Assembly (NCBI GenBank): GCA_964016885.1
Contig: OZ024740.1
Span: 21,390,001-21,454,000 of the forward strand
Reading direction: 5' to 3'
Length of the DNA: 64,000 bases
From: Eledone cirrhosa
Taxonomy: Eukaryota
Within the stretch, counting starts at the first letter, position 1; the number at the start of each line of letters is the position of its first letter. The notes under the pieces are model-generated. The model had not been told where the DNA came from, did not search any database, and saw only the letters and a list, made by a program, of their open reading frames with translations. A program made the translations under genes and the position numbers. Shown piece after piece: positions 9,111 through 64,000 of the stretch.

Positions 9111-9307
9111 ATTATTATGTGGATTGGCAGTATCGGTAGAGGGTCGGACGCCATGCTTTGACGCAAAGAGTTACGGCCCTTGCCATTCTGAGTTCAAATC
9201 CCGCCGAGGTTAACTTTGCCTTTCATCCTTACGGGGTCGATAAAATAAAGTACCAGTAATACACTGGATAATTGCTGGCCTTGTGCCAAAAGTAGAAACA
9301 ATTATTA
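9111..9307 (+). mobile_element. tRNA-derived SINE
   Basis: A-box-like TGGCAGTATCGG, B-box GAGTTCAAATCC, conserved core CTTTGCCTTTCATCCTTACGGGGTCGATAAAATAAAGTACCAG, ATT-type tail. Second copy at 15165-15360. Confidence 0.85.
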
Positions 9308-9346: not shown

Positions 9347-9399
<53 letters not shown>

Positions 9400-9672: not shown

Positions 9673-9798
9673 TATATTGAACTCCTTTAACCATCTTTTG
9701 ATCTTATATTATGCATACTCCAGTCCCACAAACTGTAGAGTGCTTCTTATCCGATATCTGCATTGCTTTATTGTACTACAATAAAACTCACCTCCTAC

Positions 9799-10147: not shown

Positions 10148-10266
10148 GTAGACTTTATGTACTGAAATATCTTGAATATAATTGCTGGTAGACTTTATGT
10201 ACTGAAAGATCTTGAATATAATTGCTGGTAGACTTTATGTACTGAAAGATCTTGAATATAATTGCT
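10148..10266. repeat. 40-bp tandem repeat, about 3 copies
   Basis: GTAGACTTTATGTACTGAAA(T/G)ATCTTGAATATAATTGCTG at 10148, 10188 and 10228. Confidence 0.92.
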
Positions 10267-10324: not shown

Positions 10325-10560
10325 TATCTTGCCTGCAACCCATTCAAGGTCTATAAAAAAGTACTAGCTTAGTACTGGGGTTAATTCTTGCTCTAAATCT
10401 CTTTCTCACTTCCATTCTCTCACTCTCTATCCTTCAGGAAGAAATCTACTGTATTCAGTCCTGAAGAGGAGATGGGCTCCACCAGGATTTAACAAAATGC
10501 TCCTAAAATGTCTTATGTCAATACGGTACCCCTACAACTCTGGGAGTTACGGGGCAATGC
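10325..10560 (+). mobile_element. Degraded SINE core and 3' body, same family as the minus-strand copy at 15470-15770
   Basis: Decayed core ...AAAGTACTAGCTTAGTACTGGGG. Blocks TCTCACTTCCATTCTCTCA, GGAAGAAATCTACTGTATTCAG, CTCCACCAGGATT and GAGTTACGGG match the reverse complement of 15472-15604. Confidence 0.7.
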
Positions 10561-14892: not shown

Positions 14893-15164
14893 ATCGTATT
14901 CAGTTCCAAATCAAAATAATACAGTTACATAGCAAACAGAAGTTATTAAGAAGCAGACATGGTTATCTAAGAAAGCCTATTGGAGGTATGATAAGAGAAA
15001 TATTGATGTGATACCAGATTGGACCTTCCAAAGTGATATTTCAATTTAGATGGTATTTAGTAAGCAGCATATGGCATGATAACTATCACCTTATCTCTGG
15101 TATACACTTCACAATTTTTCGTTGTTTAACACATTACATTATTGCCCTTGATTATTTAGGAAGA

Positions 15165-15360
15165 TATTATCATACATTGGCAGTATCGGTAGAGGGTCAG
15201 ACGCCATGCTTTGCAGCATAGAGTATGCCTCTTTATAGCCCGAGTTCAAATCCCAACGAAGTTGACTTTCCCTTTCATCCTTACGGGGTCGATAAAATAA
15301 AGTACCAGTAATGCACTGGGATAATTGCTGGCCTTGTGCCAAAAATAGAAACAATTATTA
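15165..15360 (+). mobile_element. tRNA-derived SINE (same subfamily as 9111-9307)
   Basis: TGGCAGTATCGG A-box, GAGTTCAAATCC B-box, near-identical core and tail. Confidence 0.85.
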
Positions 15361-15469
15361 CATAATATAACACACATAATATCACAGTGATAACATCTTG
15401 TGATGGTGTAGCGACACTTCCTATTCACCTTCACTACAAAATATTCAGAGATGAATATGGAATGACATG

Positions 15470-15770
15470 AACCCGTAACTCTAGGAGGCGCCGTATACGG
15501 CATTTTCTTGGGCAATTTTAATCCTGGTGGAGGTCAGCTCCAGGTCTGAATACAGTAGATTTCTTCCAGAGAAAGATAGAGAGAATGAGAGAATGGAAGT
15601 GAGATATAGATATAGAGGAAGAATAGACCCCCATCGCTGTATTTGTATTGTTTTATCGACTTGGAATCGATGAAAGGCAAAGTAAACCTAGGTGGGATTC
15701 GAACTCAGGGAGCAGGGAGCTGAAATGGATACTGAAAACCATTATATCTGACGTTCTAACCACTCTGCCA
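15470..15770 (-). mobile_element. tRNA-derived SINE whose 5' head merges with the satellite
   Basis: Minus strand: A-box TGGCAGAGTGG (15760-15770), B-box GAGTTCGAATCC (15695-15706), core TTTACTTTGCCTTTCATCGATTCCAAGTCGATAAAA, 3' body shared with 10380-10555. Confidence 0.82.
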
Positions 15771-18700
15771 TTCTATCTGACGTTCTAACCACTCTACCAT
15801 TCTATCTGACGTTCTAACCACTCTGCCATTCTATCTGACGTTCTAACCACTCTACCATTCTATCTGACGTTCTAACCACTCTACCATTCTATCTGACGTT
15901 CTAGCCACTCTACCATTCTATCTGACGTTCTAACCACTCTACCATTCTATCTGACGTTCTAACCACTCTACCATTCTACCTGACGTTCTAACCACTCTAC
16001 CATTCTATCTGACGTTCTAACCACTCTACCATTCTATCTGACGTTCTAACGACTCTACCATTCTATCTGACGTTCGAACCACTCTACCATTCTATCTGAC
16101 GTTCTAACCTTTCTGCCATTCTATCTGACGTTCTAACGACTCTACCATTCTATCTGACGTCCTAACCACTCTACCATTCTATCTGACGTTCTAACCACTC
16201 TACCATTCTATCTGACGTTCTAACCACTCTACCATTATATCTGACGTTCTAACGACTCTACCATTCTACCTGACGTTCTAACCACTCTACCATTCTATCT
16301 GACGTTCTAACCACTCTACCATTCTATCTGACGTTCTAACCACTCTACCATTCTATCTGACGTTCTAACCACTCTACCATTCTATCCGACGTTCTAACCA
16401 CTCTACCATTCTACCTGACGTTCTAACGACTCTGCCATTCTATCTGACGTTCTAATCATTCTACCATTCTATCTGACGTTCTAACGACTCTACCATTCTA
16501 CCTGACGTTCTAACGACTCTACCATTCTACCTGACGTTCTAATCACTCTACCATTCTATCTGACGTTCTAACCACTCTACCATTCTACCTGACGTTCTAA
16601 CGACTCTACCATTCTACCTGACGTTCTAATCACTCTGCCATTCTATCTGACGTTCTAATCACTCTACAATTCTATCTGACGGTCTAATCACTCTACCATT
16701 CTATCTGACGTTCTAATCACTCTACAATTCTATCTGACGGTCTAATCACTCTACCATTCTATCTGACGTTCTAACCACTCTACCATTCTATCCGACGTTC
16801 TAACCACTCTACCATTCTATCTGACGTTCTAACGACTCTGCCATTCTATCTGACGTTCTAATCATTCTACCATTCTATCTGACGTTCTAACGACTCTACC
16901 ATTCTACCTGACGTTCTAACGACTCTACCATTCTACCTGACGTTCTAATCACTCTACCATTCTATCTGACGTTCTAATCACTATACAATTCTATCTGACG
17001 GTCTAATCACTCTACCATTCTATCTGACGTTCTAACCACTCTGCCATTCTATCTGACGTTCTAACCACTCTACATTCTACCTGAGGTTCTAACGACTCTA
17101 CCATTCTACCTGACGTTCTAACCACTCTACCATTCCATATGACGTTCTAAGTACTCTACCATTCTATCTGACGTTCTAATCAATCTACCATTCTACCTGA
17201 CGTTCTAACCACTCTACCATTCTACCTGACGTTCTAATCATTCTACCATTCTATCTGACGTTCTAACGACTTACCATTCTATCTGACGTTCTAACTACTC
17301 TACCATTCTACCTGACGTTCTAACCACTCTATCATTCTATCTGACGTTCTAATCACTCTACAATTCTATCTGACGGTCTAATCACTCTACCATTCTATCT
17401 GACGTTCTAACCACTCTGCCATTCTATCTGACGTTCTAATCACTCTACCATTCTATCTGACGTTCTAACCACTCTACCATTCTATCTGACGTTCTAATCA
17501 ATCTACCATTCTATCTGACGTTCTAACGACTCTACCATTCTACCTGACGTTTTAACCACTCTACCATTTTATATGACGTTCTAACCACTCAACCATTCTA
17601 TCTGACGTTCTAATCACTCTGCCATTCTATCTGACGTTCTCATCACTCTACCATTCTATTTGACATTCTAACCACTCTACCATTCTATCTGACGTTCTAA
17701 TCACTCTACAATTTTATCTGACGTTCTAATCACTCTACCATTCTATCTGACGTTCTAACCACTATGCCATTCTATCTGACGTTCTGATCACTCTACCATT
17801 CTATCTGACGGTCTAACCACTCTGCCATTCTATCTGACGTTCTAACCACTCTACATTCTACCTGAGGTTCTAACGACTCTACCATTCTACCTGACGTTCT
17901 AACCACTCTACCATTCCATATGACGTTCTAAGTACTCTACCATTCTATCTGACGTTCTAATCAATCTACCATTCTACCTGACGTTCTAACCACTCTACCA
18001 TTCTACCTGACGTTCTAATCATTCTACCATTCTATCTGACGTTCTAACGACTTACCATTCTATCTGACGTTCTAACTACTCTACCATTCTACCTGACGTT
18101 CTAACCACTCTATCATTCTATCTGACGTTCTAACTACTCTACCATTCTATCTGACGTTCTAATCACTCTACCATTCTATCTGACGTTCTAACGACTCTAC
18201 CATTCTACCTGACGTTCTAACCACTCTACCATTCTACCTGACGTTCTAACCACTCTACCATTCTATCTGACGTTCTAATCATTCTACCATTCTATCTGAC
18301 GTTCTAATCACTCTACCATTCTATCTGACATTCTAATCACTCTACCATTCTATCTGACGTTCTAATGACTCTACCATTCTACCTGACGTTCTAACCACTC
18401 TACCATTCTACCTGACGTTCTAACCACTCTACCATTCTATCTGATGTTTTAACCACTCTACCATTCTATCTGACATTCTAACAACTCTACCATTCTATCT
18501 GACGTTCTATCCACTCTAGCATTCTATCTGATGTTCTAACCACTCTACCATTCTATCTGACGTTCTAACTACTCTACAATTCTATCTGACGTTCTAATCA
18601 CTCTAGCATTCTATGTGACGTTCTAACGACTCTACCATTCTACCTGACGTTCTAATCATTCTACCATTCTATCTGACGTTCTAACGACTCTACCATTCTA

Positions 18701-21700
18701 CCTGACGTTCTAACGACTCTACCATTCTACCTGACGTTCTAATCACTCTACCATTCTATCTGACGTTCTAACCACTCTACCATTCTATCTAACGTTCTAA
18801 CCCCTCTACCATTCTATCTGACGTTCTAACCACTCTACCATTCTACCTGACGTTCTAATCATTCTACCATTCTATCTGACGTTCCAACGACTCTACCATT
18901 CTACCTGACGTTCTAACGACTCTACCATTCTACCTGACGTTCTAATCACTCTACCATTCTATCTGACGTTCTAACGACTCTACCATTCTAGCTGACGTTC
19001 TAATCACTCTACAATTTTATCTGACGTTCTAATCACTCTACCATTCTATCTGACGTTCTATCGACTCTACCATTCTATCTGACGTTCTAACCACTCTACC
19101 ATTCTATCCGACGTTCTAACCACTCTACCATTCTATCTGACGTTCTAACGACTCTGCCATTCTATCTGACGTTCTAATCATTCTACCATTCTATCTGACG
19201 TTCTAACGACTCTACCATTCTACCTGACGTTCTAACGACTCTACCATTCTACCTGACGTTCTAATCACTCTATCATTCTATCTGACGTTCTAATCACTCT
19301 ACAATTCTATCTGACGGTCTAATCACTCTACCATTCTATCTGACGTTCTAATCACTCTACCATTCTATCTGACGTTCTAATCACTCTACAATTCTATCTG
19401 ACGGTCTAATGACTCTACAATTCTATCTGACGGTCTAATCACTCTACCATTCTATCTGACGTTCTAACCACTCTACCATTCTATCTAACGTTCTAACCCC
19501 TCTACCATTCTATCTGACGTTCTAACCACTCTACCATTCTACCTGACGTTCTAATCATTCTACCATTCTATCTGACGTTCCAACGACTCTACCATTCTAC
19601 CTGACGTTCTAACGACTCTACCATTCTACCTGACGTTCTAATCACTCTACCATTCTATCTGACGTTCTAACGACTCTACCATTCTAGCTGACGTTCTAAT
19701 CACTCTACAATTTTATCTGACGTTCTAATCACTCTACCATTCTATCTGACGTTCTAACCACTCTACCATTCTATCCGACGTTCTAACCACTCTACCATTC
19801 TATCTGACGTTCTAACGACTCTGACATTCTATCTGACGTTCTAATCATTCTACCATTCTATCTGACGTTCTAACGACTCTACCATTCTACCTGACGTTCT
19901 AACGACTCTACCATTCTACCTGACGTTCTAATCACTCTATCATTCTATCTGACGTTCTAATCACTCTACAATTCTATCTGACGGTCTAATCACTCTACCA
20001 TTCTATCTGACGTTCTAACCACTCTGCCATTCTATCTGACGTTCTAATCACTCTGCCATTCTATCTGACGTTCTCATCACTCTACCATTCTATTTGACAT
20101 TCTAACCACTCTACCATTCTATCTGACGTTCTAATCACTCTACAATTTTATCTGACGTTCTAATCACTCTACCATTCTATCTGACGTTCTAACCACTATG
20201 CCATTCTATCTGACGTTCTGATCACTCTACCATTCTATCTGACGTTATAACCACTCTGCCATTCTATCTGACGTTCTAACCCCTCTACATTCTACCTGAC
20301 GTTCTAACGACTCTACCATTCTACCTGACGTTCTAACCACTCTACCATTCCATATGACGTTCTAACCCCTCTACCATTCTATCTGACGTTCTAATCAATC
20401 TACCATTCTACCTGAAGTTCTAACCACTCTACCATTCTACCTGACGTTCTAATCACTCTACCATTCTATCTGACGTTCTAACCACTCTACCATTCTATCT
20501 AACGTTCTAACCCCTCTACCATTCTATCTGACGTTCTAACCACTCTACCATTCTACCTGACGTTCTAATCATTCTACCATTCTATCTGACGTTCCAACGA
20601 CTCTACCATTCTACCTGACGTTCTAACGACTCTACCATTCTACCTGACGTTCTAATCACTCTACCATTCTATCTGACGTTCTAACGACTCTACCATTCTA
20701 GCTGACGTTCTAATCACTCTACAATTTTATCTGACGTTCTAATCACTCTACCATTCTATCTGACGTTCTAACCACTCTGCCATTCTATCTGACGTTCTGA
20801 TCACTCTACCATTCTATCTGACGTTCTAACCACTCTGCCATTCTATCTGAAGTTGTAATCACTCTACCATTCTATCTGACGTTCTAACAACTCTACCATT
20901 CTATCTGACGTTCTAACCACTCTACCATTCTATCTAACGTTCTAACCACTCTACCATTCTATCTGACGTTCTAACCACTTTACCATTCTACCTGACGTTC
21001 TAATCATTCTACCATTCTATCTGACGTTCTAACGACTCTACCATTCTATCTGACGTTCTAACGACTCTACCATTCTACCTGACGTTCTAACCACTCTATC
21101 ATTCTATCTGACGTTCTAATCACTCTACAATTTTATTTGACGGTCTAATCACTCTACCATTCTATCTGACGTTCTAACCACTCTGCCATTCTATCTGACG
21201 TTCTAATCACTCTACCATTCTATCTGAAGTTCTAATCACTCTACCATTCTATCTGACGTTCTAACCACTCTACCATTCTATCTAACGTTCTAACATCTCT
21301 ACCATTCTATCTGACGTTCTAATGACTCTACCATTCTACCTGACGTTCTAACCACTCTACCATTCTACCTGGCGTTCTAACCACTCTACCATTCTATCTG
21401 ACGTTCTAATGACTCTACCATTCTACCCGACGTTCTAACCACTCTACCATTCTATCTGACGTTCTAACGACTCTGCCATTCTATCTGACGTTCTAATCAT
21501 TCTACCATTCTATCTGACGTTCTAACAACTCTACCATTCTACTTGACGTTCTAACGACTCTACCATTTTACCTGACGTTCTAATTACTCTACAATTCTAT
21601 CTGACGTTCTAACCACTCTACCATTCTATATGACGTTCTAAACACTCTACCATTCTATCTGACGTTCTAACCACTCTACCATTCTATCTGACGTTCTAAT

Positions 21701-24700
21701 CGCTCTACAATTTTATCTGACGTTATAATCACTCTACCATTCCATCTGACGTTCTAATCACTCTGCTATTCTATCTGACGTTCTGATCACTCTACCATTC
21801 TATCTGACCTTCTAACCCCTCTACCATTCTATCTAACGTTCTAACACATCTACCATTCTATCTGACGTTCTAACCACTCTACCATTCTACCTGACGTTCT
21901 AACCATTCTACCATTCTATCTGACGTTCTAACGACTCTACCATTCTACCTGACGTTCTAACGACTCTACCATTCTACCTGACGTTCTAATCACTCTACCA
22001 TTCTATCTGACGTTCTAACGACTCTACCATTCTACCTGACGTTCTAATCACTCTACAATTTTATCTGACGTTCTAATCACTCTACCATTCTATCTGACGT
22101 TCTAACCACTCTGCCATTCTATCTGACGTTCTGATCACTCAACCATTCTATCTGACGTTCTACACCACTTTGCCATTCTATCTGAAGTTCTAATCACTCT
22201 ACCATTCTATATGACGTTCTAACCACTCTACCATTCTATCTGACGTTCTAACCACTCTACCATTCTATCTAACGTTCTAACATCTCTACCATTCTATCTG
22301 ACGTTCTAATGACTCTACCATTCTAAATGACGTTCTAACCACTCTACCATTCTACCTGGCGTTCTAACCATTCTACCATTCTATCTGACGTTCTAATGAC
22401 TCTACCATTCTACCCGACGTTCTAACCCCTCTACCATTCTATCTAACGTTCTAACCCCTCTACCATTCTATCTGACGTTCTAACCACTCTACCATTCTAC
22501 CTGACGTTCTAACCATTCTACCATTCTATCTGACGTTCTAACGACTCTACCATTCTACCTGACGTTCTAATCACTCTACCATTCTATCTGAGGTTCTAAC
22601 GACTCTACCATTCTACCTGACGTTCTAATCACTCTACAATTTTATCTGACGTTCTAATCACTCTACCATTCTATCTGACGTTCTAACCACTCTGCCATTC
22701 TATCTGACGTTCTGATCACTCTACCATTCTATCTGACGTTCTACACCACTTTGCCATTCTATCTGAAGTTCTAATCACTCTACCATTCTATCTGACGTTC
22801 TAACCACTCTACCATTCTATCTAACGTTCTAACATCTCTACCATTCTATCTGACGTTCTAATGACTCTACCATTCTACCTGACGTTCTAACCACTCTACC
22901 ATTCTACCTGGCGTTCTAACCACTCTACCATTCTATCTGACGTTCTAACGACTCTACCATTCTACCTGACGTTCTAACGACTCTACCATTCTACCTGACG
23001 TTCTAATCACTCTACCATTCTATCTGACGTTCTAACGACTCTACCATTCTACCTGACGTTCGAATCACTCTACAATTTTATCTGACGTTCTAATCACTCT
23101 ACCATTCTATCTGACGTTCTAACCACTCTGCCATTCTATCTGACGTTCTACACCACTTTGCCATTCTATCTGAAGTTCTAATCACTCTACCATTCTATAT
23201 GACGTTCTAACCACTCTACCATTCTATCTGACGTTCTAACCACTCTACCATTCTATCTAACGTTCTAACATCTCTACCATTCTATCTGACGTTCTAATGA
23301 CTCTACCATTCTACCTGACGTTCTAACCACTCTACCATTCTTCCTGGCGTTCTAACCACTCTACCATTCTACCCGACGTTCTAACCCCTCTACCATTCTA
23401 TCTAACGTTCTATCCCCTCTACCATTCTATCTGACGTTCTAACCACTCTACCATTCTACCTGACGTTCTAACCATTCTACCATTCTATCTGACGTTCTAC
23501 CGACTCTACCATTCTACCTGACGTTCTAATCACTCTACCATTCTATCTGAGGTTCTAACGACTCTACCATTCTACCTGACGTTCTAATTACTCTACAATT
23601 TTATCTGACGTTCTAATCACTCTACCATTCTATCTGACGTTCTAACCACTCTGCCATTCTATCTGACGTTCTGAACACTCTACCATTCTATCTGACGTTC
23701 TACACCACTTTGCCATTCTATCTGAAGTTCTAATCACTCTACCATTCTATCTGACGTTCTAACCATTCTACCATTCTATCTAACGTTCTAACATCTCTAC
23801 CATTCTATCTGACGTTCTAATGACTCTACCATTCTACCTGACGTTCTAACCACTCTACCATTCTAACTGGCGTTCTAACCACTCTACCATTCTATCTGAC
23901 GTTCTAATGACTCTACCATTCTACCCGACGTTCTAACCCCTCTACCATTCCATCTGACGTTCTAATGACTCTACCATTCTATCTGACGATCTAACCACTC
24001 TACCATTCTACCTGGCGTTCTAACCACTCTACCATTCTATCTGACGTTCTAACCACTCTACCATTCTATCTAACGTTCTAACATCTCTACCATTCTATCT
24101 GACGTTCTAATGACTCTACCATTCTACCTGACGTTCTAACCACTCTACCATTCTACCTGGCGTTCTAACCACTCTACCATTCTATCTGACGTTCTAATGA
24201 CTCTACCATTCTACCCGACGTTCTAACCCCTCTACCATTCTATCTAACGTTCTAACCCCTCTACCATTCTATCTGACGTTCTAACCACTCTACCATTCTA
24301 CCTGACGTTCTAACCATTCTACCATTCTATCTGACGTTTAACGACTCTACCATTCTACCTGACGTTCTAATCACTCTACCATTCTATCTGACGTTCTAAC
24401 GACTCTACCATTCTACCTGACGTTCTAATCACTCTACAATTTTATCTGACGTTCTAATCACTCTACCATTCTATCTGACGTTCTACACCACTTTGCCATT
24501 CTATCTGAAGTTCTAATCACTCTACCATTCTATCTGACGTTCTAACCACTCTACCATTCTATCTAACGTTCTAATATCTCTACCATTCTATCTGACGTTC
24601 TAATGACTCTACCATTCTACCCGACGTTCTAACCCCTCTACCATTCTATCTAACGTTCTAATGACTCTACCATTCTATCTGACGTTCTAACGACTCTACC

Positions 24701-27700
24701 ATTCTACCTGACGTTCTAACGACTCTACCATTCTACCTGACGTTATAATCACTCTACAATTCTACCTGACGTTCTAACCACTCTACTATTCTATATGACG
24801 TTCTAAACACTCTACCATTCTATCTGACATTCTAATGACTCTACCATTCTACCCGACGTTCTAACCACTCTACCATTCTATCTGACGTTCTAACCACTCT
24901 GCCATTCTATCTGACGTTCTAATCATTCTACCATTCTATCTGACGTTCTAACGACTCTACCATTCTACCTGACGTTCTAATCACTCTACAATTCTATCTG
25001 ACGTTCTAACCACTCTGCCATTCTATCTGACGTTCTGATCACTCTACCATTCTATCTGACGTTCTAACCCCTCTACCATTCTATCTAACGTTCTAACCCC
25101 TATACCATTCTATCTGACGTTCTAACCACTCTACCATTCTACCTGACGTTCTAACGACTCTACCATTCTACCTGACGTTCTAATCACTCTACCATTCTAT
25201 CTGACGTTCTAACGACTCTACCATTCTACCTGACGTTCTAATCACTCTACAATTTTATCTGACGTTCTAATCACTCTACCATTCTATCTGACGTTCTAAC
25301 CACTCTGCCATTCTATCTGACGTTCTGATCACTCTACCATTCTATCTGACGTTCTACACCACTTTGCCATTCTATCTGAAGTTCTAATCACTCTACCATT
25401 CTACCTGACGTTCTAACCACTCTACCATTCTACCTGGCGTTCTAACCACTCTACCATTCTATCTGACGTTCTAATGACTCTACCATTCTACCCGACGTTC
25501 TAACCACTCTACCATTCTATCTGACGTTCTAATCATTCTACCATTCTATCTGACGTTCTAACGACTCTACCATTCTACCTGACGTTCTAACGACCCTACC
25601 ATTCTACCTGACGTTATAATCACTCTACAATTCTACCTGACGTTCTAATCGCACTACAATTTTATCTGACGTTATAATCACTCTACCATTCTATCTGACG
25701 TTCTAATCACTCTGCCATTCTATCTGACGTTCTGATCACTCTACCATTCTATCTGACGTTCTAACCACTCTACCATTCTATCTGACGTTCTTATCACTCT
25801 ACAATTTTATCTGACGTTCTAATCACTCTACCATTCTATCTGACGTTCTAAACACTCTGCCATTCTATCTGACGTTCTGATCACTCTACCATTCTATCTG
25901 ACGTTCAAACCACTCTGCCATTCTATCTGAAGTTCTAATCACTCTACCATTCTATCTGACGTTCTATCCACTCTAGCATTCTATCTGACGTTCTAACCAC
26001 TCTACCATTCTATCTGACGTTCTAACTACTCTACAATTCTATCTGACGTTCTAATCACTCTACCATTCTATGTGACGTTCTAACCACTCTGCCATTCTAT
26101 CTGAAGTTCTAATCACTCTACCATTCTATCTGACGTTCTAACCACTCTACCATTTTATCTGACGTTCTAACCACTCTACCATTCTATCTAACGTTCTAAC
26201 CTCTCTACCATTCTATCTGACGTTCTAACCACTCTACCATTCTACCTGACGTTCTAATCATTCTACCATTCTATCTGACGTTCTAACGACTCTACCATTC
26301 TACCTGTCGTTCTAACGACTCTACCATTCTACCTGGCGTTCTAACCACTCTACCATTCTATCTGACGTTCTAACCACTCTACTATTCTATCTAACGTTCT
26401 AACCCCTCTACAATTCTATCTGACGTTCTAACCACTCTACCATTCTACATGACGTTCTAATCATTTTACCATTCTATCTGACGTTCTAACCCCTCTACCA
26501 TTCTATCTGACGTTCTAACGACTCTATCATTCTACCTGACGTTCTAACGACTCTACCATTCTACCTGACGTTCTAATCACTCTACCATTCTACCTGACGT
26601 TCTAACCATTCTACCATTCTATCTGACGTTCTAACGACTCTATCATTCTACCTGACGTTCTAACGACTCTACCATTCTACCTGACGTTCTAATCACTCTA
26701 CCATTCTATCTGACGTTCTAACGACTCTACCATTCTACCTGACGTTCTAACCATTCTACCATTCTATCTAACGTTCTAACCCCTCTGCCATTCTATCTGA
26801 CGTTCTGATCACTCAACCATTCTATCTGACGTTCTACACCACTTTGCCATTCTATCTGAAGTTCTAATCACTATACCATTCTATATGACGTTCTAACCAC
26901 TCTACCATTCTATCTGACGTTCTAACCACTCTACCATTCTATCTCACGTTCTAACATCTCTACCATTCTATCTGACGTTCTAATGACTCTACCATTCTAC
27001 CTGACGTTCTAACCACTCTACCATTCTACCTGGCGTTCTAACCACTCTACCATTCTATCTGACGTTCTAATGACTCTACCATTCTACCCGACGTTCTAAC
27101 CCCTCTACCATTCTATCTAACGTTCTAACCCCTCTACCATTCTATCTGACGTTCTAACCACTCTACCATTCTACCTGACGATCTAACCATTCTACCATTC
27201 TATCTGACGTTCTAACGACTCTACCATTCTACCTGACGTTCTAATCACTCTACCATTCTATCTGAGTTTCTAACGACTCTACCATTCTACCTGACGTTCT
27301 AATCACTCTACAATTTTATCTGACGTTCTAATCACTCTACCATTCTATCTGACGTTCTAACCACTCTGCCATTCTATCTGACGTTCTGATCACTCTACCA
27401 TTCTATCTGACGTTCTACACCACTTTGCCATTCTATCTGAAGTTCTAATCACTCTACCATTCTATCTGACGTTCTAACCACTCTACCATTCTATCTAACG
27501 TTCTAACATCTCTACCATTCTATCTGACGTTCTAATGACTCTACCATTCTACCTGACGTTTTAACCACTCTACCATTCTACCTGGCGTTCTAACCACTCT
27601 ACCATTCTATCTGACGTTCTAATGACTCTACCATTCTACCCGACGTTCTAACCCCTCTACCATTCTATCTGACGTTCTAATGACTCTACCATTCTATCTG

Positions 27701-51700: not shown

Positions 51701-54700
51701 CGTTCTAATCATTCTACCATTCTATCTGACGTTCTAACGACGCTACCATTCTATCTGACGTTCTAACGACTCTACCATTCTATCTGACGTTCTAACGCCT
51801 CTACCATTCTATCTAACGTTCTAACCACTCTACCATTCTATCTGACGTTCTAACCACTCTACCATTCTATCTGACGTTCTAACCACTCTACTATTCTATC
51901 TGACGTTCTAACCACTCTGCCATTCTTTCTGACGTTCTAACGACTCTACCATTCTACCTGACGTTCTAACGACTCTACCATTCTACCTGACGTTCTAATC
52001 ACTCTACCATTCTATCTGACGTTCTAACCACTCTACTATTCTATCTAACGTTCTAACCCCTCTACCATTCTATCTGACGTTCTAACCACTCTACCATTCT
52101 ACCTGACGTTCTAATCATTTTACCATTCTATCTGACGTTCTAACGACTCTACCATTCTACCTGACGTTCTAACCACTATACCATTCTATCTAACGTTCTA
52201 ACCACTCTACCATTCTATCTGACGTTCTAACCACTCTGCCATTCTATCTGACGTTCTGATAACTCTACCATTCTATCTGACGTTCTACACCACTATGCCA
52301 TTCTATCTGAAGTTCTATTCACTCTACCATTCTATCTGACGTTCTAACCACTCTACCATTCTATCTGACGTTCTAACCACTCTACCATTCTATCTAACGT
52401 TCTAACCCCTCTACCATTCTACCTGACGTTCTAACGACTCTACCATTCTACCTGACGTTCTAATCACTCTACAATTCTATCTGACGTTCTAACCACTCTA
52501 CCATTCTATCTGACGTTCTAACTACTTTACCATTCTATCTGACGTTCTAACCACACTACCATTCTATCTGACGTTCTAACTACTCTCCCATTCTATCTGA
52601 CGTTCTAATCACTCTACCATTCCATATAACGTTCTAACTACTCTACCATTCTATCTGACGTTCTAATCAATCTACCATTCTATCTGATGTTCTAACGACT
52701 CTACCATTCTACCTGACGTTCTAACCACTCTACCATTCTATATGACGTTCTAACCACTCTACCATTCTATCTGACGTTCTAATCACTCTACCATTCTATC
52801 AGACGTTCTAACGACTCTACCATTCTACCTGACGTTCTAACCACTCTACCATTCTACCTGACGTTCTAACCACTCTACCATTCTATCAGACGTTTTAATC
52901 ATTCTACCATTCTATCTGACGTTCTAATCACTCTACCATTCTATCTGACGTTCTAATCACTCTACCATTCTATCTGACGTTCTAATGACTCTACCATTCT
53001 ACCTGACATTCTAACGACTCTACCATTCTATGTGACGTTCTATCCACTCTAGCATTCTATCTGACGTTCTAACCACTCTACCATTCTACCTGACGTTCTA
53101 ATCATTTTACCATTCTATCTGACGTTCTAACGACTCTACCATTCTACCTGACGTTCTAACCACTATACCATTCTATCTGACGTTCTAACCACTCTACCAT
53201 TCTATCTGACGTTCTAACCACTCTGCCATTCTCTTTGACGTTCTGATTACTCTACCATTCTATCTGACGTTCTACACCACTATGCCATTCTATCTGACGT
53301 TCTAACCACTCTACCATTCTATCTGACGTTCTAACCACTCTACCATTCTATCTAACGTTCTAACCCCTCTACCATTCTACCTGACGTTCTAACGACTCTA
53401 CCATTCTACCTGACGTTCTAATCACTCTACCATTCTATCTGACGTTCTAACCATTCTACCATTCTATCTGACGTTCTAACTACTTTACCATTCTATCTGA
53501 CGTTCTAACCACACTACCATTCTATCTGACGTTCTAACTACTCTCCCATTCTATCTGACGTTCTAATCACTCTACCATTCCATATAACGTTCTAACTACT
53601 CTACCATTCTATCTGACGTTCTAATCAATCTACCATTCTACCTGACGTTCTAACCACTCTACCATTCTATATGACGTTCTAACCACTCTACCATTCTATC
53701 TGACGTTCTAATCACTCTACCATTCTATCAGACGTTCTAACGACTCTACCATTCTACCTGACGTTCTAACCACTCTACCATTCTACCTGACGTTATAACC
53801 ACTCTACCATTCTATCAGACGTTTTAATCATTCTAACATTCTATCTGACGTTCTAATCACTCTACCATTCTATCTGACGTTCTAATGACTCTACCATTCT
53901 ACCTGACATTCTAACGACTCTAACATTCTATCTGACGTTCTAACCACTCTACCATTCTATCTGACGTTCTAACCTCTCTACCAATCTATCTGACATTCTA
54001 ACGACTCTACCATTCTATCAGACGTTCTATCCACTCTACCATTCTATCTAACGTTCTAACCACTCTACCATTCTATCTGACGTTCCAACCACTCTACCAT
54101 TCTATCTGACGTTCTAACCACTCTACCTTTCCATCTGACGTTCTAACCACTCTACCATTCTATCTGACGTTCTAACCACTCTGCCATTCTATCTAACGTT
54201 CTAACCACTCTACCATTCTATCTGACGTTCTAACGACGCTACCATTCTATCTGACGTTCTAACGACTCTACCATTCTATCTGACGTTCTAACGCCTCTAC
54301 CATTCTATCTAACGTTCTAACCACTCTACCATTCTATCTGACGTTCTAACCACTCTACCATTCTATCTGACGTTCTAACCACTCTACTATTCTATCTGAC
54401 GTTCTAACCACTCTGCCATTCTTTCTGACGTTCTAACGACTCTACCATTCTACCTGACGTTATAACGACTCTACCATTCTACCTGACGTTCTAATCACTC
54501 TACCATTCTATCTGACGTTCTAACCACTCTACTATTCTATCTAACGTTCTAACCCCTCTACCATTCTATCTGACGTTCTAACCACTCTACCATTCTATCT
54601 GACGTTCTAACCACTCTACCATTCTATCTAACGTTCTAACCCCTCTACCATTCTACCTGACGTTCTAACGACTCTACCATTCTACCTGACGTTCTAATCA

Positions 54701-57700
54701 CTCTACAATTCTATCTGACGTTCTAACCACTCTACCATTCTATCTGACGTTCTAACTACTTTACCATTCTATCTGAAGTTCTAACCACACTACCATTCCA
54801 TATAACGTTCTAACTACTCTACCATTCTATCTGACGTTCTCATCAATCTACCATTCTATCTGATGTTCTAACGACTCTACCATTCTACCTGACGTTCTAA
54901 CCACTCTACCATTCTATATGACGTTCTATCCACTCTAGCATTCTATCTGACGTTCTAACCACTCTACCATTCTATCTGACGTTCTAACTACTCTACAATT
55001 CTATCTGACGTTCTAATCACTCTACCATTCTATCTGACGTTCTAACCACTCTACCATTCTACCTGACGTTATAATCATTCTACCATTCTATTTGACGTTC
55101 TAACGACTCTACCATTCTACCTGACGTTCTAACGACTCTACCATTCTACCTGACGTTCTAATCACTCTACCATTCTATCTGACGTTCTAACGACTCTACC
55201 ATTCTACCTGACGGTCTAATCACTCTACAATTTTATCTGACGTTCTAATCACTCTACCATTCTATCTGACGTTCTAACCACTCTGCCATTCTATCTGACG
55301 TTCTGATCACTCTACCATTCTATCTGACGTTCTAACCACTCTGCCATTCTATCTGAAGTTCTAATCACTCTACCATTCTATCTGACGTTCTATCCACTCT
55401 AGCATTCTATCTGACGTTCTAACCACTCTACCATTCTATCTGACGTTCTAACTACTCTACAATTCTATCTGACGTTCTAATCACTCTACCATTCTATGTG
55501 ACGTTCTAATCACTCTACCATTCTATCTGACGTTCTAACCACTCTACCATTTTATCTGACGTTCTAACCACTCTACAATTCTATCTATCATTCTAACCTC
55601 TCTACCATTCTATCTGACGTTCTAACCACTCTACCATTCTACCTGACGTTCTAATCATTCTACCATTCTGTCTGACGTTCTAACGACTCTACCATTCTAC
55701 CTGACGTTCTAACGACTCTACCATTCTACCTGACGTTCTAATCACTCTACCATTCTATCTGACGTTCTAACCACTCTACTATTTTATCTAACGTTCTAAC
55801 CCCTCTACCATTCTATCTGACGTTCTAACCACTCTACCATTCTACATGACGTTCTAATCATTTTACCATTCTATCTGACGTTCTAACGACTCTACCATTC
55901 TACCTGACGTTCTAACGACTCTACCATTCTACCTGACGTTCTAATCACTCTACCATTCTATCTGACGTTCTAACGACTCTACCATTCTACCTGACGTTCT
56001 AATCACTCTACAATTTTATCTGACGTTCTAATCACTCTACCATTCTATCTGACGTTCTAACCACTCTGCCATTCTATCTGACGTTCTGATCACTCTACCA
56101 TTCTATCTGACGTTCTACACCACTTTGCCATTCTATCTGAAGTTCTAATCACTCTACCATTCTATCTGACGTTCTAACCACTCTACCATTCTATCTGACG
56201 TTCTAACTACTTTACCATTCTATCTGACGTTCTAACCACACTACCATTCTATCTGACGTTCTAACTACTCTCATATTCTATCTGACGTTCTAATCACTCT
56301 ACCATTCCATATAACGTTCTAACTACTCTACCATTCTATCTGACGTTCTAACGACTCTACCATTCTACCTGACGTTCTAACCACTCTACCATTCTATATG
56401 ACGTTCTAACCACTCTACCATTCTATCTGACGTTCTAATCACTCTACCATTCTATCAGACGTTCTAACGACTCTACCATTCTACCTGACGTTCTAACCAC
56501 TCTACCATTCTACCTTACGTTCTAACCACTCTACCATTCTATCAGACGTTTTAATCATTCTACCATTCTATCTGACGTTCTAATCACTCTACCATTCTAT
56601 CTGACGTTCTAATCACTCTACCATTCTATCTGACGTTCTAATGACTCTACCATTCTACCTGACATTCTAACGACTCTAACATTCTATCTGACGTTCTCAC
56701 CACTCTACCATTCTATCTGACGTTCTAACCACTCTACCATTCTATCTGACATTCTAACGACTCTACCATTCTATCAGACGTTCTATCCACTCTACCATTC
56801 TATCTAACGTTCTAACCACTCTACCATTCTATCTGACGTTCCAACCACTCTACCATTCTATCTGACGTTCTAACCACTCTACCATTCCATCTGACGTTCT
56901 AACCACTCTACCATTCTATCTGACGTTCTAACCACTCTGCCATTCTATCTGACGTTCTAACCATTCTACCATTCTATCTGACGTTCTAACAACGCTACCA
57001 TTCTATCTGACGTTCTAACGACTCTACCATTCTATCTGACGTTCTAACGCCTCTACCATTCTATCAGACGTTCTAACCACTCTACCATTCTATCTGACGT
57101 TCTAACCACTCTACCATTCTATCTGACGTTCTAACCACTCTACTATTCTATCTGACGTTCTAACCACTCTGCCATTCTTTCTGACGTTCTAACGACTCTA
57201 CCATTCTACCTGACGTTCTAACGAATCTACCATTCTACCTGACGTTCTAATCACTCTACCATTCTATCTGACGTTCTAACCACTCTACTATTCTATCTAA
57301 CGTTCTAACCCCTCTACCATTCTATCTGACGTTCTAACCACTCTACCATTCTACCTGACGTTCTAATCATTTTACCATTCTATCTGACGTTCTAACGACT
57401 CTACCATTCTACCTGACGTTCTAACCACTATACCATTCTATCTGACGTTCTAACCACTCTACCATTCTATCTGACGTTCTAACCACTCTGCCATTCTATC
57501 TGACGTTCTGATAACTCTACCATTCTATCTGACGTTCTACACCACTATGCCATTCTATCTGAAGTTCTAATCACTCTACCATTCTATCTGACGTTCTAAC
57601 TACTCTACCATTCTATCTGACGTTCTAACCACTCTACCATTCTATCTAACGTTCTAACCCCTCTACCATTCTACCTGACGTTCTAACGACTCTACCATTC

Positions 57701-60700
57701 TATCTGACGTTCTAATCACTCTACAATTCTATCTGACGTTCTAACCACTCTACCATTCTATCTGACGTTCTAACTACTTTACCATTCTATCTGACGTTCT
57801 AACCACACTACCATTCTATCTGACGTTCTAACTACTCTCCCATTCTATCTGACGTTCTAATCACTCTACCATTCCATATAACGTTCTAACTACTCTACCA
57901 TTCTATCTGACGTTCTAATCAATCTACCATTCTATCTGATGTTCTAACGACTCTACCATTCTACCTGACGTTCTAACCACTCTACCATTCTATATGACGT
58001 TCTAACCACTCTACCATTCTATCTGACGTTCTAATCACTCTACCATTCTATCAGACGTTCTAACGACTCTACCATTCTACCTGACGTTCTAACCACTCTA
58101 CCATTCTACCTGACGTTATAACCACTCTACCATTCTATCAGACGTTTTAATCATTCTACCATTCTATCTGACGTTCTAATCACTCTACCATTCTATCTGA
58201 CGTTCTAATCACTCTACCATTCTATCTGACGTTCTAATGACTCTACCATTCTACCTGACATTCTAACGACTCTACCATTCTATGTGACGTTCTATCCACT
58301 CTAGCATTCTATCTGACGTTCTAACCACTCTACCATTCTACCTGACGTTCTAATCATTTTACCATTCTATCTGACGTTCTAACGACTCTACCATTCTACC
58401 TGACGTTCTAACCACTATACCATTCTATCTGACGTTCTAACCACTCTACCATTCTATCTGACGTTCTAACCACTCTGCCATTCTCTCTGACGTTCTGATA
58501 ACTCTACCATTCTATCTGACGTTCTACACCACTATGCCATTCTATCTGAAGTTCTAATCACTCTACCATTCTATCTGACGTTCTAACCACTCTACCATTC
58601 TATCTGACGTTCTAACCACTCTACCATTCTATCTAACGTTCTAACCCTTCTACCATTCTACCTGACGTTCTAACGACTCTACCATTCTACCTGACGTTCT
58701 AATCACTCTACAATTCTATCTGACGTTCTAACCACTCTACCATTCTATCTGACGTTCTAACTACTTTACCATTCTATCTGACGTTCTAACCACACTACCA
58801 TTCTATCTGACGTTCTAACTACTCTCCCATTCTATCTGACGTTCTAATCACTCTACCATTCCATATAACGTTCTAACTACTCTACCATTCTATCTGACGT
58901 TCTAATCAATCTACCATTCTATCTGATGTTCTAACGACTCTACCATTCTACCTGACGTTCTAACCACTCTACCATTCTATATGACGTTCTAACCACTCTA
59001 CCATTCTATCTGACGTTCTAATCACTCTACCATTCTATCAGACGTTCTAACGACTCTACCATTCTACCTGACGTTCTAACCACTCTACCATTCTACCTGA
59101 CGTTATAACCACTCTACCATTCTATCAGACGTTTTAATCATTCTACCATTCTATCTGACGTTCTAATCACTCTACCATTCTATCTGACGTTCTAATCACT
59201 CTACCATTCTATCTGACGTTCTAATGACTCTACCATTCTACCTGACATTCTAACGACTCTACCATTCTATGTGACGTTCTATCCACTCTAGCATTCTATC
59301 TGACGTTCTAACCACTCTACCATTCTATCTGACGTTCTAACTACTCTCCCATTCTATCTGACGTTCTAATCACTCTACCATTCCATATAACGTTCTAACT
59401 ACTCTACCATTCTATCTGACGTTCTAATCAATCTACCATTCTATCTGATGTTCTAACGACTCTACCATTCTACCTGACGTTCTAACGACTCTACCATTCT
59501 ACCTGACGTTCTAATCACTCTACCATTCTATCTGACGTTCTAATGACTCTACCATTCTACCTGACATTCTAACGACTCTACCATTCTATGTGACGTTCTA
59601 TCCACTCTAGCATTCTATCTGACGTTCTAACCACTCTACCATTCTATCTGACGTTCTAACTACTCTCCCATTCTATCTGACGTTCTAATCACTCTACCAT
59701 TCCATATAACGTTCTAACTACTCTACCATTCTATCTGACGTTCTAATCAATCTACCATTCTATCTGATGTTCTAACGACTCTACCATTCTACCTGACGTT
59801 CTAACGACTCTACCATTCTACCTGACGTTCTAATCACTCTACCATTCTATCTGACGTTCTAACGACTCTACCATTCTACCTGACGGTCTAATCACTCTAC
59901 AATTTTATCTGACGTTCTAATCACTCTACCATTCTATCTGACGTTCTAACCACTCTACCATTCTATCTGACGTTCTAACCACTCTACCATTCTATCTAAC
60001 GTTCTAACCCCTCTACCATTCTATCTGACGTTCTAATGACTCTACCATTCTATCTGACGATCTAACCACTATACCATTCTACCTGGCGTTCTAACCACTC
60101 TACCATTCTATCTGACATTCTAATGACTCTACCATTCTACCCGACGTTCTAACCACTCTACCATTCTATCTGACGTTCTAACCACTCTGCCATTTATTCT
60201 GACGTTCTAATCATTCTACCATTCTATCTGACCTTCTAGCGATTCTACCATTCTACCTGACGTTCTAACGACTCTACCATTCTACCTGACGTTCTAACCA
60301 CTCTACCATTCTATATGACGTTCTAACCACTCTACCATTCTATCTGACGTTCTAATCACTCTACCATTCTATCTGACGTTCTAACTACTTTACCATTCTA
60401 TCTGACGTTCTAACAACTCTACCATTCTATCTGACGTTCTAACTACTCTCCCATTCTATCTGACGTTCTAATCACTCTACCATTCTATCTGACGTTCTAA
60501 CGACTCTACCATTCTACCTGACGTTCTAACCACTCTACCATTCTACCTGACGTTCTAACCACTCTACCATTCTATCAGACGATTTAATCATTCTACCATT
60601 CTATCTGACGTTCTAATCACTCTACCATTCTATCTGACGTTCTAATCACTCTACCATTCTACCTGACGTTCTAACCACTCTACCATTCTATCAGACGTTT

Positions 60701-63700
60701 TAATCATTCTACCATTCTATCTGACGTTCTAATCACTCTACCATTCTATCTGACGTTCTAAGCACTCTACCATTCTGTCTGACATTCTAACGACTCTACC
60801 ATTCTATGTGACGTTTTATCCACTCTAGCATTCTATCTGACGTTCTAACTACTCTACCATTCTATCTGACGTTCTAACTACTCTACAATTCTATCTGACG
60901 TTCTAATCACTCTACCATTCTATCTGACGCTCTAACCACTCTACCATTCTACCTGACGTTCTAATCATTCTACCATTCTATTTGACGTTCTAACGACTCT
61001 ACCATTCTACCTGACGTTCTAACGACTCTACCATTCTACCTGACGCTCTAATCACTCTACCATTCTATCTGACGTTCTAACGACTCTACCATTCTACCTG
61101 ACGGTCTAATCACTCTACAATTTTATCTGACATTCTAATCACTCTACCATTCTATCTGACGTTCTAACCACTCTGCCATTCTATCTGACGTTCTGATCAC
61201 TCTACCATTCTATCTGACGTTCTAACCACTCTGCCATTCTATCTGAAGTTCTAATCACTCTACCATTCTATCTGACGTTCTAACCACTCTACCATTCTAT
61301 CTGACGTTCTAACCACTCTGCAATTCTATCTGAAGTTCTAATCACTCTACCATTCTATCTAACGTTCTAACCCCTCTACCATTCTATCTGACGTTCTAAT
61401 GACTCTACCATTCTACCTGACGTTCTAACCAATCTACCATTCTACCTGGCGTTCTAACCACTCTACCATTCTATCTGACGTTCTAATGACTCTACCATTC
61501 TACCCGACGTTCTAACCACTCTACCGTTCTATCTGACTTTCTAACCACTCTACTATTCTATCTGACGCTCTAACCACTCTACCATTCTATCTGACGTTCT
61601 AACCACTCTGCCATTCTATCTGACGTTCTAACCATCCTACCATTCTATATGACGTTCTAACCACTCTACCATTCTATCTGACGTTCTAACCACTCTACCA
61701 TTCCATATAACGTTCTAACTACTCTACCATTCTATCTGACGTTCTAATCAATCTACCATTCTATCTGATGTTCTAACGACTCTACCATTCTACCTGACGT
61801 TCTAACCACTCTACCATTCTATATGACGTTCTAACCACTCTACCATTCTATCTGACGTTCTAATCACTCTACCATTCTATCAGACGTTCTAACGACTCTA
61901 CCATTCTACCTGACGTTCTAACCACTCTACCATTCTACCTGACGTTATAACCACTCTACCATTCTATCAGACGTTTTAATCATTCTACCATTCTATCTGA
62001 CGTTCTAATCACTCTACCATTCTATCTGACGTTCTAATCACTCTACCATTCTATCTGACGTTCTAATGACTCTACCATTCTACCTGACATTCTAACGACT
62101 CTACCATTCTATGTGACGTTCTATCCACTCTAGCATTCTATCTGACGTTCTAACCACTCTACCATTCTACCTGACGTTCTAATCATTTTACCATTCTATC
62201 TGACGTTCTAACGACTCTACCATTCTACCTGACGTTCTAACCACTATACCATTCTATCTGACGTTCTAACCACTCTACCATTCTATCTGACGTTCTAACC
62301 ACTCTGCCATTCTCTCTGACGTTCTGATAACTCTACCATTCTATCTGACGTTCTACACCACTATGCCATTCTATCTGAAGTTCTAATCACTCTACCATTC
62401 TATCTGACGTTCTAACCACTCTACCATTCTATCTGACGTTCTAACCACTCTACCATTCTATCTAACGTTCTAACCCTTCTACCATTCTACCTGACGTTCT
62501 AACGACTCTACCATTCTACCTGACGTTCTAATCACTCTACAATTCTATCTGACGTTCTAACCACTCTACCATTCTATCTGACGTTCTAACTACTTTACCA
62601 TTCTATCTGACGTTCTAACCACACTACCATTCTATCTGACGTTCTAACTACTCTCCCATTCTATCTGACGTTCTAATCACTCTACCATTCCATATAACGT
62701 TCTAACTACTCTACCATTCTATCTGACGTTCTAATCAATCTACCATTCTATCTGATGTTCTAACGACTCTACCATTCTACCTGACGTTCTAACCACTCTA
62801 CCATTCTATATGACGTTCTAACCACTCTACCATTCTATCTGACGTTCTAATCACTCTACCATTCTATCAGACGTTCTAACGACTCTACCATTCTACCTGA
62901 CGTTCTAACCACTCTACCATTCTACCTGACGTTATAACCACTCTACCATTCTATCAGACGTTTTAATCATTCTACCATTCTATCTGACGTTCTAATCACT
63001 CTACCATTCTATCTGACGTTCTAATCACTCTACCATTCTATCTGACGTTCTAATGACTCTACCATTCTACCTGACATTCTAACGACTCTACCATTCTATG
63101 TGACGTTCTATCCACTCTAGCATTCTATCTGACGTTCTAACCACTCTACCATTCTATCTGACGTTCTAACTACTCTCCCATTCTATCTGACGTTCTAATC
63201 ACTCTACCATTCCATATAACGTTCTAACTACTCTACCATTCTATCTGACGTTCTAATCAATCTACCATTCTATCTGATGTTCTAACGACTCTACCATTCT
63301 ACCTGACGTTCTAACGACTCTACCATTCTACCTGACGTTCTAATCACTCTACCATTCTATCTGACGTTCTAATGACTCTACCATTCTACCTGACATTCTA
63401 ACGACTCTACCATTCTATGTGACGTTCTATCCACTCTAGCATTCTATCTGACGTTCTAACCACTCTACCATTCTATCTGACGTTCTAACTACTCTCCCAT
63501 TCTATCTGACGTTCTAATCACTCTACCATTCCATATAACGTTCTAACTACTCTACCATTCTATCTGACGTTCTAATCAATCTACCATTCTATCTGATGTT
63601 CTAACGACTCTACCATTCTACCTGACGTTCTAACGACTCTACCATTCTACCTGACGTTCTAATCACTCTACCATTCTATCTGACGTTCTAACGACTCTAC

Positions 63701-64000
63701 CAATCTACCTGACGGTCTAATCACTCTACAATTTTATCTGACGTTCTAATCACTCTACCATTCTATCTGACGTTCTAACCACTCTACCATTCTATCTGAC
63801 GTTCTAACCACTCTACCATTCTATCTAACGTTCTAACCCCTCTACCATTCTATCTGACGTTCTAATGACTCTACCATTCTATCTGACGATCTAACCACTA
63901 TACCATTCTACCTGGCGTTCTAACCACTCTACCATTCTATCTGACATTCTAATGACTCTACCATTCTACCCGACGTTCTAACCACTCTACCATTCTATCT
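15745..64000. repeat. 29-bp satellite array, consensus TATCTGACGTTCTAACCACTCTACCATTC, roughly 1660 monomers, open at the right edge
   Basis: Period 29 (ACGTT at 15751, 15780, ...). One orientation, rare 28/30-bp variants, no non-satellite insert seen. Copy number estimated as length/29. Confidence 0.99.

Follow-up and report, generated by a model that had tools for sequence, protein, structure and literature searches.

Satellite arrays that end in a SINE remnant have been described in squamate reptiles as sSat1-3 (Vassetzky, Kosushkin and Ryskov 2023, PMC10702118); according to the text of that article, the arrays reach up to about 950 and over 1200 units and occupy many loci with a subtelomeric bias. 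In humans, minisatellites derived from transposable elements, Alu among them, have been reported (Ahmed and Liang 2012, PMC3389668, citing Jurka and Gentles 2006). Here we analysed a stretch of 64,000 nucleotides from Eledone cirrhosa (assembly GCA_964016885.1, contig OZ024740.1, positions 21,390,001 to 21,454,000, forward strand), hereafter the window, in which a 29-bp satellite adjoins a SINE. The locus has the architecture of the sSats, that is, a SINE-like unit, at least four head-to-tail middle monomers and a longer terminal SINE unit. The basic route from SINE to satellite is already in print, and the system is of a known kind. Its novelty lies in the very short unit, made of the A-box segment only, and in the clean zone at the junction.

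The array and the adjoining SINE

The following features carry the analysis:
15738..64000, minus strand: 29-bp satellite array of about 48 kb; on the plus strand its most frequent unit reads ACCATTCTATCTGACGTTCTAACCACTCT
15738..16462, minus strand: junction zone, the first 25 units, which are the most uniform, nearest to the consensus and to the SINE head, and outside the long duplicated blocks
18600..64000, no strand assigned: array interior, in which higher-order blocks are irregular and locally have periods of 96, 67, 34 and 132 units
15742..15770, minus strand: unit 1 in A-box phase, equal to the SINE head; the 9125 and 15178 copies have their heads in the same register
15760..15770, minus strand: A-box-like motif of the SINE, TGGCAGAGTGG, matching TRGYNNARYGG, a pattern taken from the preliminary description of this DNA
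15735..15738, minus strand: run of four T directly behind unit 1, a possible Pol III terminator
15695..15704, minus strand: B-box-like motif GTTCGAATCC, fitting the consensus pattern
15648..15708, minus strand: conserved SINE core, with an identity of 82% to the copy at 9188-9248 and of 77% to that at 15239-15300
15460..15647, minus strand: SINE 3' part, 82% identical over 120 nt to the copy at 10377-10492, with weak likeness to about 15460
9125..9306, plus strand: independent SINE copy for comparison, with one head only
15176..15360, plus strand: second independent SINE copy for comparison, likewise with one head only

Tandem Repeats Finder reported a single array at 15738-64000 (period 29, 1663.4 copies, 88% matches), so that the start lies at 15738 and not at 15640 as first proposed. 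Segmentation gave 1663 units, all head to tail, of which 1625 are 29 nt long, in 242 variants; the array is open at the end of the window (64000), beyond which lie its far end and the 5' end of the SINE, and 1663 is a lower bound. Only 191 of the 1663 units carry the exact consensus, which every later monomer had been said to follow, and the mean distance from it is 1.85 of 29 positions. On the minus strand of the array as a whole we found no inverted unit, no B-box and no run of four T. The longest repeated block of the interior comprises 69 identical units (2 kb) at a lag of 132; a single regular higher-order repeat was rejected, with the best global lag at only 11%. The left part of the window contains several near-perfect fold-back repeats.

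Segment 1 (15738-15766) and the commonest unit agree at 28 of 29 positions, the exception being 15744, which bears out the earlier observation of a one-base difference. The unit-boundary form TGGT is in the majority (1481 of 1625) and TGGC is the main minority. Monomers 1 and 3 do both read TGGC, as had been noted, but the form is not specific to the junction, being scattered along the array in 124 of the 1663 units, and as a sign of birth it was rejected.

The array passes gap-free into the minus-strand SINE, unit 1 being followed by the B-box, the core (motif at 15682-15669, minus strand) and the 3' part, in agreement with the preliminary description. The B-box-like motif was identified by its consensus pattern, and the central domain may be akin to that of the Nin-DC / Deu core SINE superfamily. 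Three related copies lie within the first 15.7 kb of the window. A- and B-box patterns are 64 nt apart in the array SINE versus 64 and 65 nt in its two sister copies, and in this family about ten further bases precede the A-box. The copy at 15176..15360 represents a dispersed, high-copy family in all four sequencing runs compared (14,195 to 234,857 matching records per run, in four of 13 runs). No tRNA was found in the SINE head by ARAGORN or by Rfam at E up to 10, as would be expected if the SINE is old. The core letters had no match in four supplement files of PMC4758252; a pattern search found 31-44 nt of the core in three metagenome contigs and in no genome contig. By eye, the heads of those three contigs differ from the monomer, and exact scans for the SINE head or the monomer gave no hit in metagenome, viral or prokaryote contigs.

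The relation of unit to SINE rests on position as well as on likeness. The array SINE and the copy at 15178 align without a gap over 123 nt, from A-box to core, with 83 identical positions. With the position fixed beforehand as the A-box place of each sister copy, the monomer matches the two heads at 18 and 17 of 29 positions (P 4e-5 and 2e-4). Because unit 1 occupies the A-box place of two other SINE copies, the 29-bp unit almost certainly derives from the part of a SINE head that holds the A-box, as had been suggested. An unrelated satellite, at whose edge a SINE inserted and whose likeness to an A-box is due to chance, could draw on the failure of Rfam and ARAGORN to find a tRNA and on the ease with which 17-18 of 29 is reached: in the window's left part, 10 of ~31,400 positions do so by chance, eight of them outside SINE heads. 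It would nevertheless have to explain why the match falls at the preset place in both sister copies with equal A-to-B spacing; it would leave the SINE without an A-box, and the same head sits on SINE bodies at other loci. This explanation is already largely refuted, and we give it hardly any credence.

The junction zone

Units next to the SINE are distinct from the remainder of the array. The first 10, 20 and 30 units are nearer to the SINE head than all 1547, 1537 and 1527 other windows of units, respectively, the uniformity of the first units exceeds every one of 1585 and 1575 other windows, and the closeness of the junction zone is equalled in none of ~1,620. The change away from the junction is gradual: over 50 units rho is 0.47, a value that none of 313 other windows reaches. 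Variants that are common in the interior are first met at segments 9, 11 and 25. In the first 10 units only 5 of 290 letters are off consensus, versus 13-17 expected (P 0.009 to 0.0004) had they remained untouched since the split from a relative that is 9-12% diverged and in which, as in E. cirrhosa, the monomer is abundant. At this level of cleanness, the junction units cannot have stood unaltered since that split.

That the junction or its clean zone is an artefact of assembly or polishing is very improbable. None of the contig pieces listed bridges from the SINE into unit 2 in the four runs, the near-perfect fold-backs lie in the same window, and consensus calling could smooth units. On the other hand, a same-species contig, which may come from the source sample, agrees with zero differences over 15585-15768, where it ends; the clean zone holds private variants and the gradual slope just described, and the interior was resolved into distinct blocks.

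We compared three toy models of the edge pattern, leaving out a junction formed secondarily. A plain clock produced a clean edge in none of 60 runs. Error-prone copying did so in 13 of 60, with a mean distance that overshoots the observed one (2.56 vs 1.85), and junction-anchored regrowth in 14 of 60, with an equally good fit. Regrowth predicts that the private base of unit 1 should spread; it is present in none of the nine following units.

Could the edge be kept clean by function? A run of four T can act as a Pol III terminator, and one stands directly behind unit 1 of the array SINE, where the two sister copies have three T. The distance to the B-box is ~55 nt for unit 1 and ~84 nt for unit 2, versus A-B distances of 30-67 bp reported for human tRNA genes. 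Laddered Pol III starts, which the preliminary description had envisaged, are unlikely because unit 2 lies outside the usual spacing and the four T follow unit 1. The picture of about 1660 A-boxes upstream of a single B-box did not hold either: TRGYNNARYGG is matched at 551 of 1662 unit boundaries, and mutations across the whole array fall more often on the A-box span than on the rest of the unit (9.7% vs 4.3% changed per site), with the A-box GG gone from 927 of 1625 units. Selection on A-boxes array-wide was rejected, the A-box span being more mutated than the remainder, and the array as a whole is likely to have no Pol III role.

An active Pol III/TFIIIC site at the junction, where the B-box would anchor TFIIIC, starts would be laddered and selection would keep the nearest units, is consistent with the intact state of all of the first 10 A-boxes (the longest intact run elsewhere is 7), with a B-box that fits its pattern, and with reports that TFIIIC is anchored on the B-box and scans for A-boxes via a flexible linker (PMC11811891). 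However, in the first 25 units the cleanness extends to positions outside the A-box (0.36 vs 0.77, below every other window), and the spacing of unit 2, the four T and the excess of A-box changes array-wide all count against it, so that we regard an active site as quite improbable. Also unlikely is a more speculative reading, a megabase-scale family born from half a Pol III promoter, whose seed would still be legible as a polar record and in which TFIIIC held by the B-box would shield or renew the nearest units (10 of 10 A-boxes) and the array beyond its reach would preferentially lose the A-box GG (927 of 1625). If this were true, the junction would mark a boundary in chromatin, and it would offer a direct way to test how satellites arise and what makes edge and interior differ in rate.

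Origin of the array

Our preferred explanation, towards which we lean without strong conviction, is that the array grew in place from this SINE copy by short tandem duplication and then by block duplications. The first dimer may have arisen when TG(G) at the start of the A-box slipped against, or exchanged unequally with, a second TG(G) 29 nt downstream. The 5-nt CCATT microhomology proposed earlier had to be abandoned as circular, its array-side copy being itself array DNA; the sister copies share only TG at 29 nt, and a direct repeat of 2-3 nt, TG(G), is what the sequence supports. The SINE's own base behind unit 1 gives TGGT and its A-box form is TGGC, and these two parental ends may underlie the two unit-boundary forms. 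Subsequently, the interior would have changed faster than the edge through error-prone block copying, and short-range exchange would have kept the edge uniform.

Several data bear on when and where this happened. The relative has the flank and the SINE 3' end (15374-15541), and the SINE is therefore an old resident. Monomer bins stand at ~190,000x single-copy depth in E. cirrhosa and ~230,000x in the relative; these values are summed contig depths, inflated, and were rejected as copy numbers. Relative to the SINE core, the monomer is about a hundredfold less abundant in a more distant organism. By subtraction of bin depths, another individual has about 300 raw reads that span the spacer and unit 1 and lack unit 2, and hence other loci carry the same head on a SINE body.

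It follows that the claim of a preserved birth junction stands in part. The junction zone is indeed the most SINE-like part of the array, whereas the monomer is abundant in the species and its relative, other loci bear the same head, and in the text of PMC10702118 a terminal SINE remnant is usual at many loci of SINE-derived satellites. Since the monomer is abundant in the relative, yet the junction units are cleaner than the split allows, the locus may not be the birthplace of the family, and that it was the first one for the whole family we consider doubtful. Birth in place before the split would require continued homogenisation of the edge, because the first 10 units are too clean.

An older family, derived from another subfamily copy, is possible but on the unlikely side. 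Here the satellite would have joined a resident SINE at the matching 29-nt head by recombination or repair, or a SINE-plus-array end would have been copied between loci. This secondary origin of the junction accords with monomer depths far above 1663 units, with a unit 1 that is 28/29 like the consensus next to a SINE core ~18-23% from its sister copies, with junction units that appear younger than the species split, and with squamate sSats, whose SINE end recurs at as many as thousands of loci. However, a random join would not place the cleanest zone there (0 of ~1,620 windows), so the donor would have to be another clean end, and the flank and SINE 3' end common to the relative speak against a recently moved cassette.

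The beginnings of satellites are rarely visible, because in most cases parent and array no longer adjoin or have been overwritten. As growth in place would have it, parent, junction and a gradient of change here lie in one contig, with the orthologous flank in a relative and about a hundredfold less monomer in a distant organism, and three questions are therefore testable at this locus: in-place birth versus secondary joining, edge versus interior rates, and the role of the lone B-box at the array edge.

Comparison with known systems

We found no description of this satellite family in the octopus and SINE-satellite literature searched, with subscription journals and repeat databases outside its scope, and neither the monomer nor the core letters in literature text. 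Among layered arrays, primate alpha-satellite as described in Logsdon et al. 2024 (PMC11062924) resembles the present one in its layers, block duplications and faster-changing interior. Its identity drops peripherally, whereas here uniformity is highest in the outermost 25 units, and there is no evidence for a centromere role here. The amphibian repeats PolIII/TAN, OAX, Rana/polIII and Hy/polIII, as summarised in PMC10702118, are likewise tandem repeats with a tRNA-like promoter; in that summary they measure ~200-360 nt and have no confirmed parent SINE, whereas the present array has its parent SINE attached and a unit without a B-box.

Human minisatellites derived from Alu and other transposable elements, as presented in PMC3389668, share the duplication in place of a SINE segment, in some cases seeded by short direct repeats, and some lie at the 5' end beside a near full-length Alu, as here. 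They average ~2.3-2.4 units, none forming a 48-kb array, and have flanking repeats of 5-20 bp versus 2-3 nt here.

The closest likeness is to squamate sSat1-3. According to the text of PMC10702118, their tandem unit is also part of a tRNA-type SINE, a longer terminal unit matches the SINE up to its end, and the satellite is common to related species. Our array is the same kind of structure and is not a member of sSat1-3: their units of 67 to ~290 nt come from Squam1-3 SINEs versus 29 nt here, the main snake unit includes box B (that text never mentions 'box A'), and the present array consists of the A-box segment only, from another SINE family and another animal group, with at least 1663 units and higher-order blocks. 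A clean junction zone is seen here and is not described in the text of PMC10702118, whose supplements may show A-box-only or edge patterns. This widens the range of SINE-derived satellites from reptiles to another animal group, and to a promoter fragment of only 29 nt.

The satellite array and its surroundings

In the window, the 29-bp satellite forms a single unbroken array (15738-64000; period 29, 1663.4 copies, 88% matches), which segmentation resolves into 1663 units in 242 variants (1625 of 29 nt, 31 of 30 and 7 of 28). The most frequent unit, ACCATTCTATCTGACGTTCTAACCACTCT, occurs 191 times, and the units lie at a mean distance of 1.85 from it. The array interior consists of copied blocks: it shows local periods of 96, 67 and 34 units, and at lag 132 a stretch of 69 identical units recurs. 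The first 50 units lie mostly outside such blocks (median 0). Other features of the window are as follows.

1-800, 100% inverted 800-bp copy of 2661-3460
893-4234, plus strand, intact ORF of 1113 aa that carries a YVDD motif and, C-terminally, a GIY-YIG nuclease-like stretch
5066-6390, 7288-8265, 8741-8874 and 9387-9717, near-perfect fold-back inverted repeats, arms of 67-462 bp
10148-10266, 40-bp unit repeated three times (98%), just upstream of a head-less SINE copy at ~10340
12724-14892, second minisatellite, AT-rich, 13-bp unit in 170 copies; distance to the main array, 850 bp

By its motifs the region resembles a young Penelope-like retroelement, and Pfam returned no match to the ORF at E 0.001. 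The fold-back repeats are either true palindromes or assembly fold-backs.

On the minus strand, reading out of the array, an A-box-like motif (15770-15760) is followed by T4 (15738-15735), a B-box-like motif (15704-15695) and the conserved core of the SINE adjoining the array's left edge (the array SINE). The window has related copies at 9125, 15176 and ~10340. Core identity is 82% to the first and 77% to the second, and the 3' part shares 82% identity over 120 nt with the third. Records matching 14900-15800 numbered from 14,195 to 234,857 per run in four runs and were concentrated on two SINEs. Since neither ARAGORN nor Rfam detected a tRNA, the box patterns and their spacing are what suggests a tRNA origin. 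The element looks like a SINE of octopuses, and its core may be of Nin-DC/Deu type. Such domains are listed without sequence letters in the excerpt of PMC4758252. The core recurs (31-44 nt, 84-97% identical) at 388-433 in three metagenome contigs, inside otherwise different elements, which points to a widely shared SINE domain. Many contigs of this species and of a relative, organism B, jump back from ~15360 to 15176, which suggests that elsewhere in both genomes copies of this neighbouring SINE family stand head-to-tail or close together.

Derivation of the unit from the SINE head

The satellite unit was, with little doubt, derived from the head of the SINE. From A-box to core, the array SINE, with unit 1 (the unit nearest to it) as its head, aligns gaplessly with the 15178 copy (83/123 identical) and with one gap with the 9125 copy (84/124), and the A-to-B distances in the three copies are 64, 64 and 65. 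The monomer matches the heads of the two sister copies at 18 and 17 of 29 positions, a score that, taken alone, is reached at 10 of the ~31,400 positions to the left of the satellite; at the pre-set place, however, the chance of such a match is 4e-5 and 2e-4. The first ~ten bases of the SINE family upstream of the A-box, seen in contig loose ends before 15176, are absent from the unit.

Raw reads of another individual gave ~307 reads' worth of depth over the spacer and ~319 more on unit 1 than on unit 2 (a subtraction of bin means). The array flank itself had 2 reads, and the spacer and unit 1 reads come from other loci. They represent copies with a single head or else further junctions between a SINE and an array, possibly at few loci, and read length may explain where they stop; under both readings, the SINE body is joined to this head at other loci too. 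The one-base difference in the junction unit at 15744, noted in the preliminary description, is present, and is likely private to the array SINE copy: 513 of 535 reads at 15744 carry the satellite's base. Within the array, 3 of 1663 units (15738, 16231 and 48466) have the base that the junction shows at position 7. The array is a real SINE-head-derived satellite.

As for the first duplication, the 5-nt CCATT pair proposed as its microhomology is circular, the array-side copy being the end of unit 2. Both sister copies carry the A-box TGG and then TGC 29 nt downstream, where the array SINE has TGG; a microhomology of 2-3 nt is thus demonstrated. Unit boundaries read TGGT in 1481 of 1625 cases, like the downstream end in the SINE, and TGGC in 124, like the A-box end, which would agree with two resolutions of one mispairing. 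Recurrent transitions could also have produced this split, as other sites of the unit are equally variable. The TGGC reported in A-boxes 1 and 3 is there but is not junction-specific, with 124 of 1663 units carrying it array-wide.

Age and structure of the junction

Summed contig depth on two monomers, which is no copy number, reached ~190,000x single copy in this species and 230,000x in organism B. Relative to the SINE core, monomer depth was 0.087, 0.123 and 0.0009 in this species, organism B and the more distant organism C, with 12, 5 and 1 contigs containing tandem joints, respectively. The monomer is far above 1663 units, common to organism B and scarce in C. Flank pieces of organism B differ at 24/258 (14900-15164) and 20/168 positions (15374-15541); since the latter includes the SINE 3' end, the array SINE is likely older than the split. 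Assuming that these pieces are orthologous, 13-17 changes are expected in the first 10 units if untouched since the split, vs 5 seen (P 0.009 to 0.0004), and 39-52 in the first 30, vs 28 seen. The changes being too few, homogenisation of the edge continues, or else the array arose at or joined this locus when the family was already present. This low count is the main result opposing a preserved birth junction; the accompanying claim that the satellite came from the SINE A-box segment holds insofar as the unit is the SINE head. We lean slightly towards growth of the array in place from this SINE copy. A secondary or copied junction is the less probable course. A kept SINE end is usual in squamate satellites and so marks no unique birthplace (excerpt of PMC10702118); that this locus was the family's first birthplace is doubtful.

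The first 10 and 25 units have mean distances to consensus of 0.5 and 0.84, below all 1624 and 1609 windows, respectively, starting past unit 30, and distance climbs away from the junction (rho 0.47 across 50 units, a value matched in 0 of 313 other windows). The junction zone is also the part of the array nearest the SINE head and the most uniform. A toy simulation, started from the junction with parameters of our choosing, placed the array minimum in the first 10 units in 0/60 runs under a plain clock, 13/60 under error-prone copying and 14/60 under regrowth from unit 1. Regrowth, however, should spread unit 1's private base; none of the 9 units that follow carries it, though it occurs once at segment 18. 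The clean, polar junction zone is an unexplained feature worth following.

Pol III motifs and comparison with known systems

The estimate of ~1660 A-boxes does not hold, as TRGYNNARYGG is matched at only 551 of 1662 unit boundaries. Per-site change is 9.7% in the A-box span vs 4.3% elsewhere in the unit, and 698 of 1625 units keep both last A-box G intact. These G (positions 23-24) rank first and third among the unit's sites in amount of change, with plus-strand forms CC 698, TC 427, CG 254 and TG 115 per 1625; this pattern was spotted post hoc, and CpG gain and decay may lie behind part of it. A-boxes are intact in 10/10 of the first units (longest run elsewhere, 7), but non-A-box sites of these units are likewise clean. 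In human tRNA genes, TFIIIC binds the B-box tightly and locates an A-box 30-67 bp off (excerpted text of PMC11811891). Unit 1 lies ~55 nt and unit 2 ~84 nt from the B-box, and no minus-strand B-box was found inside 15738-64000. T runs act as Pol III terminators, and T4 stands directly behind unit 1, so any junction transcript would likely be short. The laddered starts over many units that had been envisaged are unlikely, and a Pol III role of the junction units is improbable.

No report of this satellite family or of an A-box-only unit was found in searches of the freely accessible literature. In primate centromeres (PMC11062924, in excerpt), identity drops with nearness to the edge and the interior is the faster-changing part, whereas here the junction units are nearest the consensus and most uniform. 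Human TE-derived repeats, among them 5'-end duplications of part of an Alu, average ~2.3 units (PMC3389668, part of text), vs 1663 here. SINE-derived satellites in 56 squamate genomes, as described in the available part of Vassetzky et al. 2023 (PMC10702118), occupy up to thousands of loci with up to >1200 units and are mostly arrays closed by a longer terminal unit that matches the SINE as far as its end; the terminal SINE is kept as here, but their units measure 67 to ~290 nt vs 29.
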